Shown one piece after another: positions 82 through 63,879 of a DNA stretch of 64,000 bases (its first letter is position 1; the number at the start of each line of letters is the position of its first letter). A program made the translations under genes and the position numbers. Source of the stretch: Candidatus Gottesmanbacteria bacterium (GTDB lineage Bacteria > Patescibacteriota > Microgenomatia > UBA10105 > UBA927); NCBI GenBank assembly GCA_963701185.1, contig OY969569.1:383054-447053 (forward strand). The letters are read 5' to 3'. The notes beneath the pieces were generated by a model. It was not told where the DNA came from. It searched no databases and was given only the letters and a program-made list of their open reading frames with translations.

Positions 82-111
82 GAAGACTGTCTTTGTACAA
101 AGACAGTCTTC
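82..111. repeat. REP-like hairpin copy 1 (gaagactgtctttgtacaaagacagtcttc)
   Basis: 30-nt palindrome read directly: 13-bp arms around a 4-nt centre. It overlaps the stop codon of the RAYT gene (110..754). Confidence 0.85.
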
Positions 112-754
112 ATTCGTCAAAACGTAACTCTGCGGGTATATTACGTATAGAGTCAGTTGCTTCAACGAAATCCTTATACCGAACAAACGGCAGTTCTTTC
201 TGATGATTGGTAAAGTGGCTTAAAATAATTGCTGTGTTGAGCCAAATCGCATGTTTTTTTCCAAGATAATAACTGTAACTTGAATACGGATACAAAACTG
301 GGTCTGTGCATATTTCAGGAATGGGATTCCTATGAATATACCGAGAAAGATACAAAAAATACGATTCATTATCGATATGTATCGCCTTATATCGTCCCTG
401 AAACAAATGTCCTTGGCGGGTATATTTTTTATTAAAAAATTTCACATATCTTGTGATCACGCTTCGCATGAATGTTTCTATTCCGTTAAAGTCTTTCTGA
501 TGTACAAACAGATGAAAGTGGTTAGGCATCATAACAAAACAAAGCAAGTTTACATGGGTATACAAATTTTTCCTTTTTATGAGTATTTTTGTTGGGTCTT
601 CTTCAGGAGGCGGGGACAAACAGTCTTTAATAATTCGTAAGAATACCGAATAATCCATTTCATCTAAAAAGATGGGGCGCTTATCAACTCCTCTATTGTA
701 AATATGATAATACCCATCTGCCACATACTCTTTCAGTTCGTTTTTGGCAGGCAT
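110..754 (-). CDS. IS200/IS605-like Y1 (HuH) transposase, REP-associated tyrosine transposase (RAYT) type
   Basis: HuH motif NHFHLFV and catalytic Tyr motif YIHRNPI. The N-terminal YHIYNRG is typical of TnpA_REP/COG1943. Both ends are flanked by REP-like hairpins. Confidence 0.85.
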   Translation of the reverse strand: MPAKNELKEYVADGYYHIYNRGVDKRPIFLDEMDYSVFLRIIKDCLSPPPEEDPTKILIKRKNLYTHVNLLCFVMMPNHFHLFVHQKDFNGIETFMRSVITRYVKFFNKKYTRQGHLFQGRYKAIHIDNESYFLYLSRYIHRNPIPEICTDPVLYPYSSYSYYLGKKHAIWLNTAIILSHFTNHQKELPFVRYKDFVEATDSIRNIPAELRFDE

Positions 755-802: not shown

Positions 803-1339
803 TCATTTAGCGGATGTCAGAGGATCGAATTTCAAATTCTCAAAAAACTTCATCTGTGACGCATGCATCTTTTGGGCGCGGGGGCTTTCGTTCATTACCC
901 AAAGTGTAGATCTGAATTCTTCCGGCCTGCTGTCGCGGAGCAAAAGTCTATTCCGTTCCTGAACCTTTTTAAATTCCTCTGTTAATCTCCCCGTGTATCC
1001 CGGAGGCAACATGGATATCGTTAGACTCTCTGAAGACATTTCAGCCAGATGTGAGAACTTATCTTTCTCCCGCAGGTATACATCATATGAGTACCCGCTT
1101 CCGTCCGGTTTTCCGAACTGGCTTCCGATACCCACCTCAATATCAGGTCCGAATCTCTTTTTCAAGTATGCTTCAACGTTTTTCGGTACATAGGATTGTC
1201 TGTCGCGGACATCAGGACGACTAGAAGCGGGCAAGGGGTTTCTCATATTTTCTTCCTGATCCCATTCCAAAATAAGCCTGTTCCACTTCTGAAACTCAAC
1301 TTCCTGTGGTTTATCTTCCGGTACGGTATTTACATTCAT
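803..1339 (-). CDS. hypothetical protein (178 aa)
   Basis: Long ORF abutting REP copy 2. No recognisable motif. Confidence 0.4.
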   Translation of the reverse strand: MNVNTVPEDKPQEVEFQKWNRLILEWDQEENMRNPLPASSRPDVRDRQSYVPKNVEAYLKKRFGPDIEVGIGSQFGKPDGSGYSYDVYLREKDKFSHLAEMSSESLTISMLPPGYTGRLTEEFKKVQERNRLLLRDSRPEEFRSTLWVMNESPRAQKMHASQMKFFENLKFDPLTSAK

Positions 1340-2902: not shown

Positions 2903-3174
2903 AGAGATGGCATGTCTATATCCTTCGCTGTGCTGATAATACACTCTATACCGGGGTGACGACAGATATTGAGCGCCGGATCCATGAACATAATATAAAA
3001 TCGTCAGGGGCAAAATATACGAAAGCGAAACGCCCGGTGACGCTTGTCTATTCTGAAGCGGTTCCAAACCGAAGTGCGGCGCTCAAACGCGAAGCGGCAA
3101 TAAAAAAACTATCAAAACGGGAGAAAGAAAACTTGACGCGACACCCGGGCTATGTAACTATAGAACCATGCTAA
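2899..3174 (+). CDS. GIY-YIG nuclease-domain protein (UPF0213/YhbQ-like)
   Basis: N-terminal WHVYILRCADNTLYTGVTTDIERRIHEHN matches the GIY-YIG signature. Confidence 0.75.
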   Translation: MKRWHVYILRCADNTLYTGVTTDIERRIHEHNIKSSGAKYTKAKRPVTLVYSEAVPNRSAALKREAAIKKLSKREKENLTRHPGYVTIEPC

Positions 3175-3764
3175 GGAAGACCCTATTGGCTTTATTGTGG
3201 TTTCCGCTCACATTCACTCTGCTTATCATAAACCTGACGATATTGGGAGCAACCTCCAACTGGGACCGTCCGACTCTTCCGCTCTCAAATGCCGCACCGA
3301 ATGAGAATAGCATCACGGCCGCAGGCGGCACATCGGAGGTTCTCTCGGCGACCGTTATCGCCGGCGACGCGCGGACGTTTCTCCTGGAATCATTTCTGAA
3401 AAGAAATAATTCTCCGATGACGCCCTACGCAGGTCTTATTGTGGAACAGGCAGATGCCTATAAGTTTGATTTCCGGCTGGTGCCTGCAATCGCCATGTGC
3501 GAATCGAATCTCGGGAAACGCGTACCGCTCAAATCCGGATTTAATCCCTTTGGTATTGCGGTGTATACGGGGAGCCAATCCGGCAAAAATTTTGACAGCT
3601 GGCAAACTGCTATTGAATGGGTGAGCAAGTATATTCACGACCGATATTACGTCCAGGGGATTACTGCACTTGCGGATATCGGGGCAATTTGGGCACCTCC
3701 GTCGGTTGCCGAGGGCGGTTCGTGGGCCGACTGCGTCGGATTCTTCATGAAAAAGCTCTATTGA
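3168..3764 (+). CDS. secreted protein with glucosaminidase/FlgJ-like domain (paralog 1)
   Basis: N-terminal TM/signal segment. AIAMCESNLGKR resembles the glucosaminidase A-x-ESxxG motif. Paralogous to 3869..4426. Confidence 0.45.
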   Translation: MLRKTLLALLWFPLTFTLLIINLTILGATSNWDRPTLPLSNAAPNENSITAAGGTSEVLSATVIAGDARTFLLESFLKRNNSPMTPYAGLIVEQADAYKFDFRLVPAIAMCESNLGKRVPLKSGFNPFGIAVYTGSQSGKNFDSWQTAIEWVSKYIHDRYYVQGITALADIGAIWAPPSVAEGGSWADCVGFFMKKLY

Positions 3765-3780
3765 CAAATAGCCCATAGAC

Positions 3781-3809
3781 TTGACAACTACCCCTATTTA
3801 GGCTATACT
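3781..3809 (+). promoter_or_regulatory. sigma70-like promoter TTGACA-17-TATACT
   Basis: ttgaca at 3781-3786 and tatact at 3804-3809, with a 17-nt spacer. It lies upstream of CDS 3869. Confidence 0.45.
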
Positions 3810-3868
3810 GCCGCCTTAGATCCTAAAGTAAGCTCGTTAAACAGTTTGCTTTAGGATTTTTTGGTGGT

Positions 3869-4426
3869 ATGAAAAAAATATTAACGATCATCATGCTCCT
3901 TTTAGCCTTATCTGGCCTCTCAACGGCCAAAGTTTTTGCCACATCTGAGGCTGGTTCTACTGCAACGCTTGCCTATCATGTAGCCTCAGATACAACGAAT
4001 GACACGCGGGTTAGGCGCCTCCGAATGTTTTTGGAATCGTATGATTCGCCGCTTGCCGCTGACGCCGCAACATTCGTCGCTGAAGCTGATAAATATAACC
4101 TCGATTGGAAGCTCGTTGCCGCGATCGCAGGCGTGGAATCCACATTCGGCAAACAGATTCCGACCGGCTCATATAACAGCTGGGGCTGGGGTGTATTTAC
4201 CGGAGCGGCGGACGGCGTCCATTTTAAAGACTGGGCGCAGGGTATCGCTGTGGTTTCCGAAGGGCTGCGCAAAAACTACATAGACCGCGGTGCCCGGGAC
4301 ATCTATGACATGGGCTGGATTTATGCCGCCAACGGTGATTCGTGGGCTTCGCATGTCCGCTACTTTATCGATAAACTGGAAACGTTTCAGCCCACCGAGG
4401 TTGCCCAACTACCGGTCTCCATCTAA
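3869..4426 (+). CDS. secreted protein with glucosaminidase/FlgJ-like domain (paralog 2)
   Basis: Signal peptide MKKILTIIMLLLALSGLSTA. AIAGVESTFGKQ motif. Colinear similarity to 3168..3764. Confidence 0.45.
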   Translation: MKKILTIIMLLLALSGLSTAKVFATSEAGSTATLAYHVASDTTNDTRVRRLRMFLESYDSPLAADAATFVAEADKYNLDWKLVAAIAGVESTFGKQIPTGSYNSWGWGVFTGAADGVHFKDWAQGIAVVSEGLRKNYIDRGARDIYDMGWIYAANGDSWASHVRYFIDKLETFQPTEVAQLPVSI

Positions 4427-4432
4427 GCGGGG

Positions 4433-4438
4433 TATAAT
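4433..4438 (+). promoter_or_regulatory. -10 box TATAAT for tRNA-Leu
   Basis: ggtataat, 8 nt upstream of the tRNA 5' end. Confidence 0.4.
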
Positions 4439-4446
4439 ATCACTAT

Positions 4447-4527
4447 GCCGCAGTGGTGGAATGGTATACACGTACGCTTTAGGAGCGTATGCCGAAAGGC
4501 TTAGGGGTTCAACTCCTCTCTGCGGCA
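4447..4527 (+). tRNA. tRNA-Leu (anticodon TAG), long variable arm
   Basis: gccgcag...tacgc-ttTAGga-gcgta, variable arm tgccgaaaggctta, T-arm, acceptor ctgcggc. CCA is not encoded. Confidence 0.8.
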
Positions 4528-4558
4528 CAGTAAAAATTATCTATTGATAAGGAGTATT

Positions 4559-5032
4559 ATGAGATATCTTGAAAGTCAATTACCTAGACGGGGTGAACCT
4601 TATACTAATCGCACAGAACCAAAAGAATATTTTGATTATCAGGATGAAATCAAAAGATTAGCCAATAATATAAGTCGTGAAACGGCTAATCATATTTTTC
4701 ATTTGATCCACAGCGCAGAACAATCTTACCAACCTGCGACGGGAAAAAGAGCTGAACTATTGGAGGATCACCGAGATGATGTGGCGGATATTTTTTTCAG
4801 TTCGACCCAATACGCAGAATATTTTTATCAACACGCGATGGGAAATTGCATCGAACAATTAAATAACCCCCGGTATGTAGAAAGGACCCTGAGAAATTTA
4901 TACCCTGTTTTATTAAGAGAATTTCCGTCGTTACGGTCGATCTTTCGAGAGTCGATTACAAAATTGCCACATGGAGAAGAGGTGATTATGGCGATACAAG
5001 GATTGGATGATTTTAAAGATCTTTTCAAGTAA
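4559..5032 (+). CDS. hypothetical protein (157 aa) in islet
   Basis: ATG at 4559 with an aaggag RBS. AT-rich. No known motif. Confidence 0.45.
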   Translation: MRYLESQLPRRGEPYTNRTEPKEYFDYQDEIKRLANNISRETANHIFHLIHSAEQSYQPATGKRAELLEDHRDDVADIFFSSTQYAEYFYQHAMGNCIEQLNNPRYVERTLRNLYPVLLREFPSLRSIFRESITKLPHGEEVIMAIQGLDDFKDLFK

Positions 5033-14078: not shown

Positions 14079-15021
14079 TACATTCAAAACAATCGTTCTA
14101 ACCATTGCATCGCTATGTATTGCCGGTCAGGTGTTTGCCGGATCGATGTCCATAAAAATTGAGCAACCAAAGAGCCCGACAAATTTAACAAGTTTGAACG
14201 TGAATTTTGTCGTGCTGGATTATGCTTCCAATGGCAACATCACGGCAAAATGCTACAAACAGGGTCCGTCTGACGGTGGATTTAGCCAGTTTGGCAGCGA
14301 CATAGCAATCACGCCAGGAGGAAACACCTCCAATTGTACCGCTGACAGCTCGGTTCTCACGAGTGACGGAACGTACCAGTTTTACGTCACTGCTGCAAAT
14401 TCAGGGGAAACGGTAACCAGTAATACGGTGAGCGTTATCAGAAACACCAGCGGACCGGATACGCCGACAAGCTACAGCAAAGAGGATTTCGAATCATGCA
14501 AGTACAAGATTAAATTTCATACTGCCGATGACGGCAAGACGGCAAAAGTTGAGCTATACCGCTCGCCCAACACGACATTTGATGTGAATGCGGGAAGCCT
14601 CGTGGAGACGAAAACCATCGGACCCAACGCCGACGGTGAATTTGTCAATGAGAAACCCGATTGCAGCAAAACATATTTCTACGCAATCCGTGCCTTTGAT
14701 TCAACAGGGAACGGCTCGGGGATACGGGGGGACAGCGAAACGCATACTATAACGACGACAATCCTTCCCACGACGACCACCGGTACCGCGGGTGCCATTC
14801 CAGCAGGCACCGGAGGCAATATATTGGGTGCAGAGACACTAAAGGGCGCTACAGGACCTTCCGGAGCCATTCTGGGAGAGCAAGCTTCCCCCAGCCCGAC
14901 CCAGCAACCGTATACTCCTCCGAAGCCAAACTTGTTTCGCCGCAGTACTATGCTGACGGTGGGAGCCATAGCTGTTATACTTCTTGGTATATGGCTCGCA
15001 AAAAGAAAAAAGTCCGAATAA
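14071..15021 (+). CDS. secreted/anchored surface protein with FN3-like segment and C-terminal TM anchor
   Basis: ATG at 14071 with a ggagga RBS. Signal peptide. [16 protein letters not shown] is an FN3-like strand motif. C-terminal hydrophobic stretch plus KRKKSE, with no LPXTG. Confidence 0.5.
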
Positions 15022-15593
15022 TCGGGCGAATCTCCCGCATATTATTTTGGGTTGCCGGCCTTACGTGCCTTGCCGGTATTACCATCTTGCTTCTGACATT
15101 TGGTCCGCTTGCTACACAGGAACTCCGGTATACAGCCCATGCAGTTCCGAAAGAGATTGTCCCGATTGATAAAAATTTCGGCATCGTGATCCCACGCTTA
15201 GGCGCCAATGCACGGATTATTGCCAACGTCGATCCGTATGACAGTAAGGCCTACCAGTACGCCCTCACCAAAGGAGTCGCCCATGCCCGCGGCACCAGCG
15301 TACCGGGCGCGATGGGGAACATATTTTTATTCGCCCATTCATCGGAAAATTTTTACGATGCGTTGCGATATAATTCCGTTTTTTATCTTCTCCCGAAACT
15401 CACCGCCGGAGACAAAATTCTTTTGTATTATCACGGCGTGAAGTTTACCTACACGGTAACCGGTAAAAAATTCGTAAGTTCCAAAGATGTTTCTTACCTA
15501 CAAGGAGAGTCCTTGAAGTCGACGCTTACCCTCATGACTTGCTGGCCGCCGGGCACAACCAATCAGCGACTTCTCGTATTTGCATCCCTATGA
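14991..15593 (+). CDS. sortase (transpeptidase) family protein
   Basis: N-terminal TM anchor. Conserved His in FLFAHSS. Catalytic TLMTCWP (TLxTC) and downstream Arg (QRLLV). Sits next to the LPXTG substrate gene. Confidence 0.75.
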   Translation: MARKKKKVRIIGRISRILFWVAGLTCLAGITILLLTFGPLATQELRYTAHAVPKEIVPIDKNFGIVIPRLGANARIIANVDPYDSKAYQYALTKGVAHARGTSVPGAMGNIFLFAHSSENFYDALRYNSVFYLLPKLTAGDKILLYYHGVKFTYTVTGKKFVSSKDVSYLQGESLKSTLTLMTCWPPGTTNQRLLVFASL

Positions 15594-21270: not shown

Positions 21271-22314
21271 ATGAGTGATCTTATACCGACACCGAATTTC
21301 ATTGGTATGCTTTTGGAGTGCCAGCAGGATGCGCTTGACGCGATTGCCGACGGTGAAAAATCCGCGGAACGGCTGCGCATAGAGCTCCTTGGCAATAAAA
21401 GTGATCTGTCAAAGTTAACCAAAAACATACGGCTTGTCCCTGCCGCAGACCGGGCCCAGGCCGGAACGGTCGTCAACCAGGTAAAACAGACCATTCTGCA
21501 GGCTCTCGCCGCACGCGGCACGACACAAACCCCCAAAACCACCCTGCCATTTGACCCGACCATGCCGGGGATTGAGCCGCCGGAGGGCCATTTGCACATC
21601 GTAACGCAGGCTATTGAAGAAATTACGCGCATATTTGAACGTATCAGTTTCATCCGCGTCCGGCACCCCGAAGTTGACTGGGACTGGTATCCGTTTGAAT
21701 CATTAAACATGCCCCACTCTCACCCGGCAAGCGACGAATGGGAAACATTTTATATTGAAGGGCACGGAATAGGACCAAAAAAACAGAAAATAGTCCTCAC
21801 GCCGCATACCAGCAACGGCCAGGTACGGGAAATGGAAAAGGGGAAACTTCCGATCCGCATGATCAATATCGCCAAGTGCTACCGCCGGCAGATTGACGTG
21901 TCCCATACGCCGATGTTCCACCAATTTGAGGGATTGTATATCGACCGCAACGTGTCCATTTCACATCTCAAAGGGGTACTGGATTATTTTGCAAAACAAT
22001 TTTTCGGCCCTGAAAGAAAAACGCGCATCCGGCCGTTTCATTTTCAGTTTACAGAACCTTCATTTGAAGTGGATGTTTCCTGCGGTGTGTGTCTCGGAAA
22101 AGGATGCAAACTGTGCAAGGAAGGCTGGCTTGAACTCGGCGGCGCGGGCATGGTGCATCCGAATGTCCTGAAAAACGGGAATGTTCCGGCCGGGTACAAC
22201 GGCTTTGCGTTCGGTTGGGGAGTCGAGCGCTGTTTTATGATGAAATCGGGAACGCAATTGGACGACATTCGACTTTTATATAGCAACGATGTGCGCTTTT
22301 TGGAACAGTTTTAA
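21271..22314 (+). CDS. pheS: phenylalanyl-tRNA synthetase alpha subunit
   Basis: Class II motifs FHQFEGLYID and GWGVERCFMM. N-terminal helical arm. Confidence 0.9.
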   Translation: MSDLIPTPNFIGMLLECQQDALDAIADGEKSAERLRIELLGNKSDLSKLTKNIRLVPAADRAQAGTVVNQVKQTILQALAARGTTQTPKTTLPFDPTMPGIEPPEGHLHIVTQAIEEITRIFERISFIRVRHPEVDWDWYPFESLNMPHSHPASDEWETFYIEGHGIGPKKQKIVLTPHTSNGQVREMEKGKLPIRMINIAKCYRRQIDVSHTPMFHQFEGLYIDRNVSISHLKGVLDYFAKQFFGPERKTRIRPFHFQFTEPSFEVDVSCGVCLGKGCKLCKEGWLELGGAGMVHPNVLKNGNVPAGYNGFAFGWGVERCFMMKSGTQLDDIRLLYSNDVRFLEQF

Positions 22315-22316
22315 AT

Positions 22317-24284
22317 ATGAACATACTCATACCTGATTCATGGCTCAGAGAATTTCTTAAAACAAAGGCAACTTCTCAACAGATAAAGGAGTATTTGTCC
22401 CTGTGTGGCCCGTCGGTCGAACGGCTTAGAAGACTGTCTTTGAACAAAGACAGTCTTCAAGGCGAAACAGTTTACGACATCGAAATCACAACCAACCGGC
22501 CCGACGCGATGTCTGTTTTTGGTGTCGCGCGCGAGGCGGCGGCGATTTTACCCCGGTTCGGGATTCCGGCAAAATTCGTCAATGACCCCTATGCCCTACA
22601 AGGACTCTCCTTGAAGGACGAGGAGAGTCCTTCTCGGAGCCTTAAACTTTTTATCAAAACCGACCCGAAGCTTAATCCCCGCTGGACATCTATTATTCTT
22701 TCGGATGTCCGCGTCGCGCCTTCGCCCCTCTGGCTCAAACAAAAACTGGAAGCAACCGGCATCCGCAGCATCAACAACGTGATTGACATCACGAATTATC
22801 TGATGCGCGCCTACGGCCAGCCGGCGCACGCGTTTGATTATGACGAAATTAAGGACTCAACAATGATCCTTCGTGAAAGTAAGAAGGGTGAAAAAATCGT
22901 CACCCTGGACGGAAAGACACACACCCTCGCAGGCGGCGACATCGTGATCGAAGACGGCGCCGGCAGACTCATTGACTTGTGCGGCATCATGGGCGCGCAA
23001 AACTCCAGCATTAAACCCGGAACGTCATCTGTTGTTCTTTTTACCCAAACGTACAATCCCGTCAATATCCGCAAAACCTCCATGGCACTGGCGGCGCGAA
23101 GCGAAGCGTCATCGCTTTTTGAAAAAGGACTCGATAGTGAACTGACACTACCTGCTTTAATCCGCGGAATAGAACTGATGGAAAAACTTACCGGCGCACA
23201 CGCTGCCAGTAAAATGTATGACATCTATCCCAAACCGTACAAACCATATTCAGTTACTGTCTCAAAAGAAAAAACGGCGGGCTATATGGGGACAGAACTC
23301 ACTGATACTGAAATAAAAAAAATACTGGTTCCGCTCGGATTCACGCCGTCTCTCACTAAAAAAGAGATTACCGTCACGGTCCCGAGCTACCGCACGGATG
23401 TGACACTGGACGTGGATGTGATTGAAGAAATCGCCCGGATATACGGATATCACAACATACAGACCACATTGCCGGAAGGCGAGCCGCCGATCGTCATACC
23501 TGATCCGCTCCTTGGATGGGAACACGAAATAAAAATACACCTGCGCGATTGGGGATTTACCGAACTCACTACCTACTCCATGATTTCCGAAAAACTCATG
23601 GGGATATTCGGCCTTGATACCAATAAAGCATATAAAATCACCAATCCGCTTTCGGAGGAATGGCTCTACATGCGGCCAACACTCCTCCCAAGCGCGCTTC
23701 TTGCCGTTGAACAGAACCTGCATTTCAGAAAGGATCTGCAATTATTTGAATTAAGTATGACGTATCAATGGCGTGAGCACGATTTGCCCAAAGAAAAACC
23801 GACACTGGTCGTTGCGTGGACCGGAAACAAACATCGCGAGGCCAAAGGAGTAGGAGAAGCTATCTGTTCGATCCTGGGTGAACGCAATTCGGGCTTCGTT
23901 GAAGAAGTTAAACCTGATCTTCTGTCAAAAATGAATATCCATACGCCGGTGACGACATTGACTCTCGATATTGCCGATCTTGTTACCCACGCAACACGGA
24001 ATAAAAAATATGTTCCGATTTCTAAATATCCTCCGATCGTCGAAGATTTATCGTTCATCGTTCCGCAGGGATTCCAGGTCGGTCCGCTTATTGACGTTCT
24101 GTCGCGGGTTCACAAACTTATCGAGTCCATCGTTTTCTTAGACGCCTATGAAAACAAACGGACGTTCCGTGTCACGTACAATGACCCGACAAAAAACCTG
24201 ACCGGCATGGATATCGCACCCATCCGTCAAAAACTCATCGAATACGCCGGAGAAAAATTCGGGGCCTCCGTGGTCACCGCTTAA
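22317..24284 (+). CDS. pheT: phenylalanyl-tRNA synthetase beta subunit (short form lacking N-terminal tRNA-binding domain)
   Basis: B3/4 and B5 domains, then an FDYDEI-containing core. 655 aa. Carries an in-frame REP hairpin at 22429-22458. Confidence 0.85.
   Translation: MNILIPDSWLREFLKTKATSQQIKEYLSLCGPSVERLRRLSLNKDSLQGETVYDIEITTNRPDAMSVFGVAREAAAILPRFGIPAKFVNDPYALQGLSLKDEESPSRSLKLFIKTDPKLNPRWTSIILSDVRVAPSPLWLKQKLEATGIRSINNVIDITNYLMRAYGQPAHAFDYDEIKDSTMILRESKKGEKIVTLDGKTHTLAGGDIVIEDGAGRLIDLCGIMGAQNSSIKPGTSSVVLFTQTYNPVNIRKTSMALAARSEASSLFEKGLDSELTLPALIRGIELMEKLTGAHAASKMYDIYPKPYKPYSVTVSKEKTAGYMGTELTDTEIKKILVPLGFTPSLTKKEITVTVPSYRTDVTLDVDVIEEIARIYGYHNIQTTLPEGEPPIVIPDPLLGWEHEIKIHLRDWGFTELTTYSMISEKLMGIFGLDTNKAYKITNPLSEEWLYMRPTLLPSALLAVEQNLHFRKDLQLFELSMTYQWREHDLPKEKPTLVVAWTGNKHREAKGVGEAICSILGERNSGFVEEVKPDLLSKMNIHTPVTTLTLDIADLVTHATRNKKYVPISKYPPIVEDLSFIVPQGFQVGPLIDVLSRVHKLIESIVFLDAYENKRTFRVTYNDPTKNLTGMDIAPIRQKLIEYAGEKFGASVVTA
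22429..22458. repeat. REP-like hairpin copy 3 (gaagactgtctttgaacaaagacagtcttc), in frame inside pheT
   Basis: 26/30 nt identical to copy 1. It encodes RLSLNKDSLQ in pheT without breaking the frame. Confidence 0.85.
22600..22632. repeat. 12-bp perfect inverted repeat (aaggactctcct ... aggagagtcctt) with 9-nt loop inside pheT
   Basis: Read directly. Shares the caagga/gagagtcct motif seen at 15498 and 55818. Confidence 0.6.
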
Positions 24285-35984: not shown

Positions 35985-36012
35985 TGTTTTAATGTTTTAA
36001 AACATTAAAACA
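35985..36012. repeat. 28-bp perfect palindrome copy A (tgttttaatgttttaaaacattaaaaca)
   Basis: Read directly. Intergenic between tyrS and recG. Confidence 0.9.
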
Positions 36013-55223: not shown

Positions 55224-55838
55224 ATGCATGCTTTCCTTCTTGTTGGCAATAATCCTCAAGAAGAACTGGAATCCCGTGTTGCCGCATGGAAAATTTCTCC
55301 ATGGGACATACACCGGCCAGGAGGCGCAGGCATTGCGGATATCCGCGCGTTGTGCCGCGACCTGTCTCTCGCCCCGCGCGGCTACGAGCACGTAGGCATT
55401 ATCGAACACATGGAGCTTCTGACTCCTGAAGCGCAAAATGCGCTTTTAAAAACACTCGAAGAGCCCCCGCCGCATACATATATTATAGGGACCACTCACA
55501 TGCCAGAGGCGCTCTTGCCCACCGTCCGGTCACGGATGACTATTATTACAGTAAAAAATACTATCAAAAAGTCAGATGCAACAAGTCTATTAAAATTATT
55601 ACAGGAGTCTGCAGGGCAACGCCTCTCAACGCTTGAACCGTTTGTTGCCACGCGCGACGATGCGAAAATTTTTGTCACCGCGCTTCTTGATGCAACCCAT
55701 GAAGAACTTCTCACACATCCATCACCGCGCCTTACCAAACTCATCCGAAATCTCCTCGCCGCCCAGTCCCAACTCGCGGTCAACGTCAATCCGCGGCTGG
55801 TTGTCGACAACGCAGTACTACAAGGAGAGTCCTCGTAG
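55224..55838 (+). CDS. holB: DNA polymerase III delta-prime subunit-like (short AAA+ lid-only form)
   Basis: LLKTLEEPP and RSR sensor motif. 204 aa. Its stop overlaps a short hairpin and is 4 nt from palindrome copy B. Confidence 0.6.
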   Translation: MHAFLLVGNNPQEELESRVAAWKISPWDIHRPGGAGIADIRALCRDLSLAPRGYEHVGIIEHMELLTPEAQNALLKTLEEPPPHTYIIGTTHMPEALLPTVRSRMTIITVKNTIKKSDATSLLKLLQESAGQRLSTLEPFVATRDDAKIFVTALLDATHEELLTHPSPRLTKLIRNLLAAQSQLAVNVNPRLVVDNAVLQGESS

Positions 55839-55841
55839 TCC

Positions 55842-55869
55842 TGTTTTAATGTTTTAAAACATTAAAACA
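55842..55869. repeat. 28-bp perfect palindrome copy B
   Basis: tgttttaatgttttaaaacattaaaaca read directly. Preceded by tcctcgtagtcc. Confidence 0.9.
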
Positions 55870-56574: not shown

Positions 56575-56602
56575 TGTTTTAATGTTTTAAAACATTAAAA
56601 CA
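56575..56602. repeat. 28-bp perfect palindrome copy C
   Basis: Identical to copies A, B and D. Confidence 0.9.
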
Positions 56603-63851: not shown

Positions 63852-63879
63852 TGTTTTAATGTTTTAAAACATTAAAACA
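63852..63879. repeat. 28-bp perfect palindrome copy D
   Basis: Identical 28-mer. Confidence 0.9.

Follow-up and report, generated by a model that had tools for sequence, protein, structure and literature searches.

Short palindromic repeats that lie inside coding sequences have been described in several bacterial groups. Di Nocera et al. (2013) catalogued repetitive extragenic palindromic (REP) sequences of 20-40 nt together with the tyrosine-transposase genes that they flank, the 'REPtrons' (PMC3733652). REPs of the GTAG/CGTC super-family are found mostly at the 3' ends of genes, while some lie wholly in open reading frames (ORFs) and are read as amino acids; hosts of such intragenic copies include tRNA-synthetase genes of X. 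oryzae, E. litoralis and S. alaskensis (PMC3733652). The same authors recall the Rickettsia palindromic elements (RPE; Ogata et al. 2000), which are also in frame (PMC3733652). The subject of this report is a hairpin in pheT, the gene for the beta subunit of phenylalanyl-tRNA synthetase (PheRS), in a 64,000-nt stretch of DNA ('the window') from Candidatus Gottesmanbacteria bacterium. We believe, with good though not complete confidence, that this hairpin is a tolerated in-frame REP insertion in a permissive loop, and that its partner is a gene resembling those for REP-associated tyrosine transposases (RAYTs) 22 kb away. We refer to the repeat family as REP-A.

Since intragenic REPs, those in tRNA-synthetase genes included, and RPEs have been published (PMC3733652), an event of this kind is already known. 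The element itself differs from its described relatives in several respects. Intragenic REPs of the GTAG/CGTC super-family come from Proteobacteria and other listed phyla and form a small minority of their families, whereas REP-A belongs to Patescibacteria and 46% of its copies are intragenic; REP-A also has no tag (at most 2 of 75 copies), and its arms are themselves palindromes. With RPEs it shares the habit of a selfish palindrome that sits in frame in conserved, presumably functional genes of a reduced genome. RPE-1 is around 100-150 bp long, encodes tens of residues and is not known to have a cognate transposase. REP-A, in contrast to these elements of Rickettsiales, is 28-30 nt long, adds 7-10 residues, has a RAYT-like partner gene and is hosted by Patescibacteria. 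It behaves like an RPE, but it is not one. Full-text literature searches that paired RAYT or REP with Patescibacteria or the Candidate Phyla Radiation (CPR) found no prior report. What is new is the phylum, an untagged REP family with palindromic arms, the large intragenic share, and the reoccupation of the same loops by different palindromes.

The hairpin in pheT and its loop

The ORF at 22317-24284 (+ strand, 655 codons) is identified as pheT because its product carries the Pfam domains B3_4, B5, tRNA_synthFbeta and FDX-ACB. All its relatives in the PDB are PheRS beta chains (E down to 9e-68), and its named homologues belong to 'Candidatus Gottesmanbacteria' or 'Patescibacteria group'. The gene for the alpha subunit, pheS (21271-22314, + strand), ends 2 nt upstream, and the order of the two genes is the same at the orthologous loci L073 and L074 (L numbers denote loci in other genomes). 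At 22429-22458 the pheT sequence reads GAAGACTGTCTTTG-AA-CAAAGACAGTCTTC, which forms a 14-bp stem without mismatch and a loop of 2 nt; no strand is assigned to this or to the other hairpins. The hairpin runs from position 2 of codon 38 to position 1 of codon 48 and encodes R-RLSLNKDSL-Q, RLSLNKDSLQ being residues 39-48; the peptide across the insert is ...RLSLNKDSLQGETVY... The frame stays open through the hairpin, the C-terminus of the protein is normal, and none of the positions that are invariant among 54 aligned family members has been lost. The initial annotation of this DNA, made from the letters alone, had placed a REP hairpin in frame in pheT, and this is confirmed.

The palindrome is poorer in G+C (37%) than the window (47-50%). 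A 40-nt region at the hairpin folds as RNA with -22.3 kcal/mol (z = -6.3). The possibility that it is an intrinsic terminator can be dismissed: the sequence 3' of it, AAGGCGAAAC, has no T-run, and the terminator scan did not call it. A search of Rfam gave no family for the hairpin, only miRNA-like matches far under threshold.

Its sequence recurs in the window. The copy at 82-111, some 22 kb away, is identical at 29 of 30 positions with the sole mismatch in the loop, and a copy at 771-802 is identical at 24 of 30; these values replace the 26/30 that had been given for the REPs beside the transposase gene. With up to 3 mismatches allowed, a search of the window returned the pheT hairpin and 82-111 alone, and the third copy was recovered with a 14-nt arm query at up to 2 mismatches. 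In 100 dinucleotide-preserving shuffles there was no match to the pheT palindrome at up to 3 mismatches, and the earlier judgement that chance recurrence is negligible holds. The window contains three REP-A copies in all, two of them beside the RAYT-like gene.

To see whether the segment is lineage-specific, the N-terminal parts of the 120 best PheT matches, query included, were aligned (identity up to 77%). The REP-A segment is absent from all 119 other proteins and is in this sense lineage-specific. Relatives read ...SVERxKKxG-(D/E)xxxYDIEITxNRPD at the site, while the window protein reads ...SVERLRRL-SLNKDSL-QGETVYDIEITTNRPD, longer by 7 residues; at the DNA level the difference from the orthologues L073 and L074 is +21 nt. 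The initial annotation had spoken of an inserted hairpin of 30 nt. A 30-nt palindrome is indeed there, but the net gain is 21 nt (+7 residues), and about 9 nt of the palindrome fall where relatives have the codons for K-K-(V/I). At just 77% identity, the nearest orthologue is too distant to fix the boundaries of the insertion or its target site.

In an AlphaFold2 model of PheT (mean predicted local distance difference test, pLDDT, 86), strands 33-40 and 50-56 are joined by coil at 41-49, and pLDDT is 69 for residues 41-50 against 88-89 on either side. According to this model the insert is the solvent-exposed tip of a beta-hairpin of the B1 domain, which agrees with the surface loop that had been proposed from sequence. 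A phmmer alignment to Thermus thermophilus PheT pairs query residues 5-40 with 3-38 (a weak but colinear match) and 49-76 with 152-179, which places the insert at the canonical position of the B2 (tRNA_bind-type) domain. Other bacteria fit a B2 domain of about 110 residues there. Pfam detects no B2/tRNA_bind domain in the window protein, and all 119 relatives lack the domain as well; PheT of this clade is a short form of about 620-695 residues.

The same loop has received other inserts. In two other Gottesmanbacteria it holds, respectively, a perfect 20-nt palindrome, GCCTGCCTGCGCAGGCAGGC (GCCTGCCTGC|GCAGGCAGGC), encoding SGLPAQA (L076, pheT at 3001-4932), and a GC-rich structured insert of about 72 nt that adds 24 residues (L075, pheT at 666-2750). 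The three inserts are unrelated in sequence, and this loop, loop 1, is therefore a recurrent permissive site. At L076, the region upstream of pheT (1242-2999) encodes a 585-aa product that matches both tRNA-synt_2c (AlaRS-type) and PheS domains and may be a fusion or an extended PheS.

A second hairpin lies further on in the window pheT, at 22600-22632 (AAGGACTCTCCTTG-aagga-CGAGGAGAGTCCTT; residues about 95-106, QGLSLKDEESPS). Its 14-bp stem includes one G-T pair (z = -5.8), and it falls in a second hypervariable loop of low pLDDT. It resembles a sister palindrome of REP-A, AAGGACWGTCCTT, with a compensatory G/C swap, and it is older than the REP-A hairpin of the gene. At the protein level its peptide QGLSLK...SRSL is also present in PheT P0004 and P0016, the latter lacking the central part. 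That most variants of this loop 2 (e.g. TKPFI..AHKKEG) are palindromic is a suggestion unsupported by the DNA of L073-L076 (z from -2.6 to +1.2). The sequence CTACAAGGAGAGTCCT(T/C)G is seen at 15499-15519 of the window (in the sortase gene, read YLQGESLK) and at 55820-55836. Apart from an inverted central triplet (GAG/CTC), it matches the second hairpin's 5' arm region at 18/21 positions, and these copies may be single half-sites of the sister repeat.

The RAYT-like gene and the REP-A family

The presumed partner of REP-A is encoded at 110-754 (- strand, 214 aa). Its product matches Pfam Y1_Tnp (34.6 bits against a cut-off of 23) and has more than 7,900 homologues; where the host of a homologue is named, it belongs to the Gottesman-, Levy- or Beckwithbacteria. 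Residues H79 and H81 (the HUH motif), Y139, H141 and N143 are invariant across 33 homologues. In a Foldseek search with its AlphaFold2 model (pLDDT 87) the top match was 4er8 (E 3e-7, template modelling score 0.71), the E. coli REP-associated tyrosine transposase bound to a REP hairpin, which ranked over the TnpA proteins of IS608, ISDra2 and IS200. A REP-A copy lies at either end of the gene. One (81-112) covers its 3' end, with the stop codon (110-112) in the stem, and lies 8 nt past the stop of a convergent gene that ends at 73. The other (771-802) is upstream of the start codon and directly follows the stop of an ORF at 803-1339 (- strand). The initial annotation had called this gene a RAYT; a RAYT-like identity is supported by the fold, the catalytic residues and the REP-flanked architecture.

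REP-A stands on both sides of homologues of this Y1 gene at L052 (42% identity), L080 (80%) and L082/L083 (65%). The homologue at L081 (65%) is flanked by the sister palindrome AAGGACWGTCCTT instead, and the repeat therefore co-varies with the gene. The Y1 gene adjoins the same convergent gene (C-terminus ...LKVIFEVAEEWIRFIR.KKEEIV*) in the window, L080 and L081, and at L082 the C-terminus of the neighbour is more diverged; L080, L081 and L082 are Gottesmanbacteria orthologues. Vertical inheritance at one syntenic site is a mark of RAYTs, whereas insertion sequences are scattered, and the gene of the window is in keeping with the former. With the REPIN-RAYT systems of Proteobacteria the locus shares a Y1/HUH gene bracketed by cognate hairpins, 4er8 as best structural match, a conserved syntenic site and a flanking repeat that co-varies with the gene. 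It differs in that the window protein is only some 15% identical to 4er8 and has a longer C-terminal region, and in that classic REPs are doublets whereas REP-A occurs as single hairpins or as arrays of 2-3 half-sites. The HUH/Y1 fold, and a hairpin-gene-hairpin unit of about 720 bp, recall IS200/IS605 elements and the size of IS200. Unlike those, the Y1 gene stays at one syntenic locus in four Gottesmanbacteria genomes and is not scattered, and solo hairpins far outnumber Y1 genes, which are present in just 3 of 72 REP-A loci.

We also noticed a second Y1 subfamily, about 27% identical to the window protein, at L045 (2878-3690) and L040 (7565-7999). Its genes are flanked by another hairpin, CCAACTGCGTCAGTTGG or ACAACCT..AGGTTGT, and several RAYT/REP pairs therefore seem to coexist.

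An exact-pattern scan of other genomes, one per species, found REP-A in 72 loci (74 copies), with up to about 17 loci per draft genome. The carriers are mostly metagenome-assembled genomes (MAGs) of Roizmanbacteria or 'Patescibacteria group', or AT-rich MAGs labelled as uncultured Gammaproteobacteria. The last, 'uncultured Gammaproteobacteria bacterium' MAGs (among L001-L072; CAYYYW01, CAYIVY01, CAYWJV01 and others), hold many copies, and their label is doubtful since their TrxB and sortase proteins are near-identical to those of Patescibacteria MAGs. Viral contigs gave no match to the palindrome. When metagenomes were scanned, the G-C/GNNC sub-variant turned up in 12 loci, with no pheT copy and no empty-site allele among them.

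The core of the family is AAAGAC(T)GTCTTT, a loop of 2-4 nt and AAAGAC(A)GTCTTT, which makes a 13-14-bp stem in a 28-30-nt unit; each arm (AAAGAC-W-GTCTTT) is palindromic on its own. The units fold with -19 to -22 kcal/mol (z below -6). The outer pair beyond the 13-bp stem covaries (59 A-T, 10 G-C, 6 non-Watson-Crick), and there is no pairing further out, the flanks being simply AT-rich with a weak TA. Half-sites occur nearly all in inverted pairs (TA 79, AT 7, AA 1, TT 0), and lone ones are at chance level.

The initial annotation had proposed to look for the same REP in other coding genes, and in related genomes the palindrome is in frame in many of them. We found 34 of the 74 copies (46%) at least 20 residues from either end of ORFs of 166-1728 aa, and about 10 more overlap the last codons of genes. 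Intragenic copies are read in three frames, as KTVFxKDSL, RLSLxKDSL, KDCLxKDSL or KTVFxQRQSL. The ORFs that bear them belong to 17 gene families, and Pfam domains were above cut-off in 15 of 18 tested. Hosts include glutamyl-tRNA synthetase (GluRS), methionyl-tRNA formyltransferase (Fmt), peptide deformylase (Def), thioredoxin reductase (TrxB, at two sites), a penicillin-binding protein transpeptidase, a P-type ATPase, Rpe, a U32 peptidase, a carbamoyltransferase, an aminotransferase, a GT1 protein, a sortase and a phage-tail-like protein.

Another perfect palindrome of the window, TGTTTTAATGTTTTAAAACATTAAAACA (28 nt), is present in four identical copies at 35985-36012, 55842-55869, 56575-56602 and 63852-63879. 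All four lie between ORFs, and those at 55842 and 56575 share a conserved upstream stretch of about 20 nt. It has stop codons in all six frames; probably it is a second REP-like family which, unlike REP-A, cannot survive inside genes.

Passenger or maintained element

If the hairpin in pheT is a tolerated REP, its history might be pictured as follows. The RAYT-like Y1/HUH transposase of 110-754 would be the cognate partner of REP-A and would mobilise the hairpin. A copy would have reached pheT at codons 38-48, most probably because the RAYT transposed it as single-stranded DNA or because the hairpin at 82-111, beside the RAYT-like gene, was copied. There it persists because no stop codon arises in the frame used, because the change in length is a multiple of three and because it sits at the exposed tip of the beta-hairpin. 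The insert is presumably translated as part of a functional PheT and would be neutral, or nearly so, for PheRS. Patescibacteria genomes, gene-dense and of roughly 1 Mb, would leave REP-A little intergenic space, and it is for want of such space that surviving copies are often in permissive loops and linkers or over the 3' ends of genes. The 'coding REP' tolerated in a surface loop of an essential aminoacyl-tRNA synthetase, as the initial annotation put it, is in our view supported by the alignment, the model and the related genomes, though REPs of this sort had already been published (PMC3733652).

Several observations do not sit easily with this picture. The net gain in pheT is 21 nt and not 30, meaning that either 9 nt of the original loop were overwritten or part of the stem was there before. 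Within the 64-kb window the pheT copy is the single dispersed one. At most 2 of 75 copies have a GTAG/CTAC or CGTC/GACG motif within 12 nt. The best NCBIfam match of the Y1 protein, REP_Tyr_transpos (NF047646), scores 40.9 bits against a cut-off of 80, and its sequence has no match in the PDB at E up to 1; judged by sequence, it is only a distant relative. Finally, REP-A arms are more conserved than their flanks at orthologous coding sites, as would be expected of an element that is maintained more than of one that is carried along in a purely neutral way.

This last point deserves to be set out. Copies that occupy orthologous coding sites in different species agree in all 24 arm bases (100%), but their 240 nt of flanks show only 59-84% identity, and their loops differ. 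The comparison is biased, as the loci were found by exact pattern match. An unbiased survey is offered by the 120 closest sortase homologues, of which 20 have RLS(L/F/S)xKDSL, one of them with S at the variable position on the stem/loop boundary. In pairwise comparison of these 20 proteins the seven arm-encoded residues (R-L-S and K-D-S-L) are 100% identical, the 15 flanking residues on either side 77% and the rest of the protein 88%. Other lineages have at this linker site the sister palindrome (QGLSLNKDSPY; confirmed in the DNA of L077), a 7-nt tandem repeat or non-palindromic sequence. Compensatory change is seen as well: the trxB copy of L045 has a T-A to C-G replacement that keeps the stem, and in the sister family four coordinated changes preserve both the hairpin and the internal symmetry of the arms.

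Two side observations concern these sites. A variant in sortase and TrxB genes, RNSKFEIRN, was considered as a REP hairpin and rejected, as it is the 7-nt tandem repeat (GAAATTC)n. At L061 (the C-terminal site of trxB) and L078 (sortase, 2001-2756) this repeat is in frame, giving EIRNSKFEIRN, and occupies codon sites that hold REP-A in sister lineages. The sortase orthologue of the window (14991-15593) is without the linker of about 35 residues that includes the REP-A site and is present in the Roizmanbacteria-type sortases of L013, L015, L019, L027, L044, L051 and L072.

One could go further and suppose that in Microgenomates-type Patescibacteria RAYT-associated hairpins are long-lived in coding sequence and actively maintained, so that REP turnover shapes protein loops. 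Palindrome families would then replace one another at PheT loops 1 and 2, at the TrxB hairpin and in the sortase linker. In favour of this, compensatory changes have kept stems perfect where the codons on either side are down to 60-80% identity, and the repeat co-varies with the RAYT-like gene. We offer the idea tentatively and think it on the whole unlikely. Should it be true, REP turnover would be a main driver of loop and linker evolution in essential proteins of streamlined genomes, and these bacteria would be a natural setting in which to study what selection favours in REP/RAYT pairs.

Alternatively, the pheT hairpin might itself be a selected cis-element, its position in a permissive loop being the price of a gene-dense genome. 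At the RNA level it could, for instance, make ribosomes pause, serve as a processing site or affect the stability of the pheST mRNA; at the DNA level it could be a binding site for a RAYT dimer or a host factor. The stability of the hairpin (-22.3 kcal/mol) is in keeping with this, and so are the conservation of arms over flanks, both in the biased exact-match loci and in the sortases, and the compensatory stem changes at L045 and in the sister family. Recent spread, gene conversion or RAYT-dependent maintenance, however, would also give conserved arms. The copy is missing from 119 relatives, meaning that PheRS expression does not need it; it has neither a T-run nor a terminator call nor an Rfam family; and an element that turns up in unrelated genes, read in three frames, and also at gene ends is distributed like a dispersed repeat and not like a gene-specific regulator. 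We accordingly give this explanation little credence. Less credible still is that the insertion was adaptive for the protein, a PheT that lacks B2 having gained a new contact, perhaps to tRNA or to a partner protein. The coincidence with the site of a tRNA-binding-type domain in other PheT is suggestive, as is the gain of other inserts by the same loop in two relatives. But the peptide is dictated by the repeat, being found with the same sequence in unrelated proteins and there in different frames too, local confidence of the model is low, 117 of 120 relatives do without any insert, and the three inserts that do exist have no sequence in common.

It might also be asked whether the palindrome is a copy of a mobile repeat at all, and not a chance or local product (e.g. 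of quasi-palindrome correction), an error of assembly or part of a decaying pseudogene. The shortfall of the net gain against the full length of the element speaks for such an origin, and in other genes the segment that bears the REP is about as long as the non-REP segment that it replaced; together these facts leave room for templated overwriting as opposed to simple insertion. A non-mobile origin must nevertheless contend with zero expected chance matches, with 29/30 identity to a copy 22 kb away and a core found in 72 loci elsewhere, with 655 intact codons that keep all family-invariant residues, and with an identical protein on record from NCBI, ENA and Logan. It is largely refuted, and we consider it highly improbable.

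Taking the hairpin as a tolerated REP-A copy, an essential aminoacyl-tRNA synthetase accepts a mobile hairpin exactly where other bacteria hold an extra domain. REP/RAYT biology is thereby extended to the CPR, and in its gene-dense genomes nearly half of the detectable REP-A copies are presumably translated parts of housekeeping genes. Stem conservation at orthologous coding sites, together with the co-variation of RAYT and repeat, provides a testable handle on selection acting on REPs. Lineage-specific loop 'insertions' in CPR proteins may often be derived from repeats, and this bears on annotation, phylogenetics and structure prediction.

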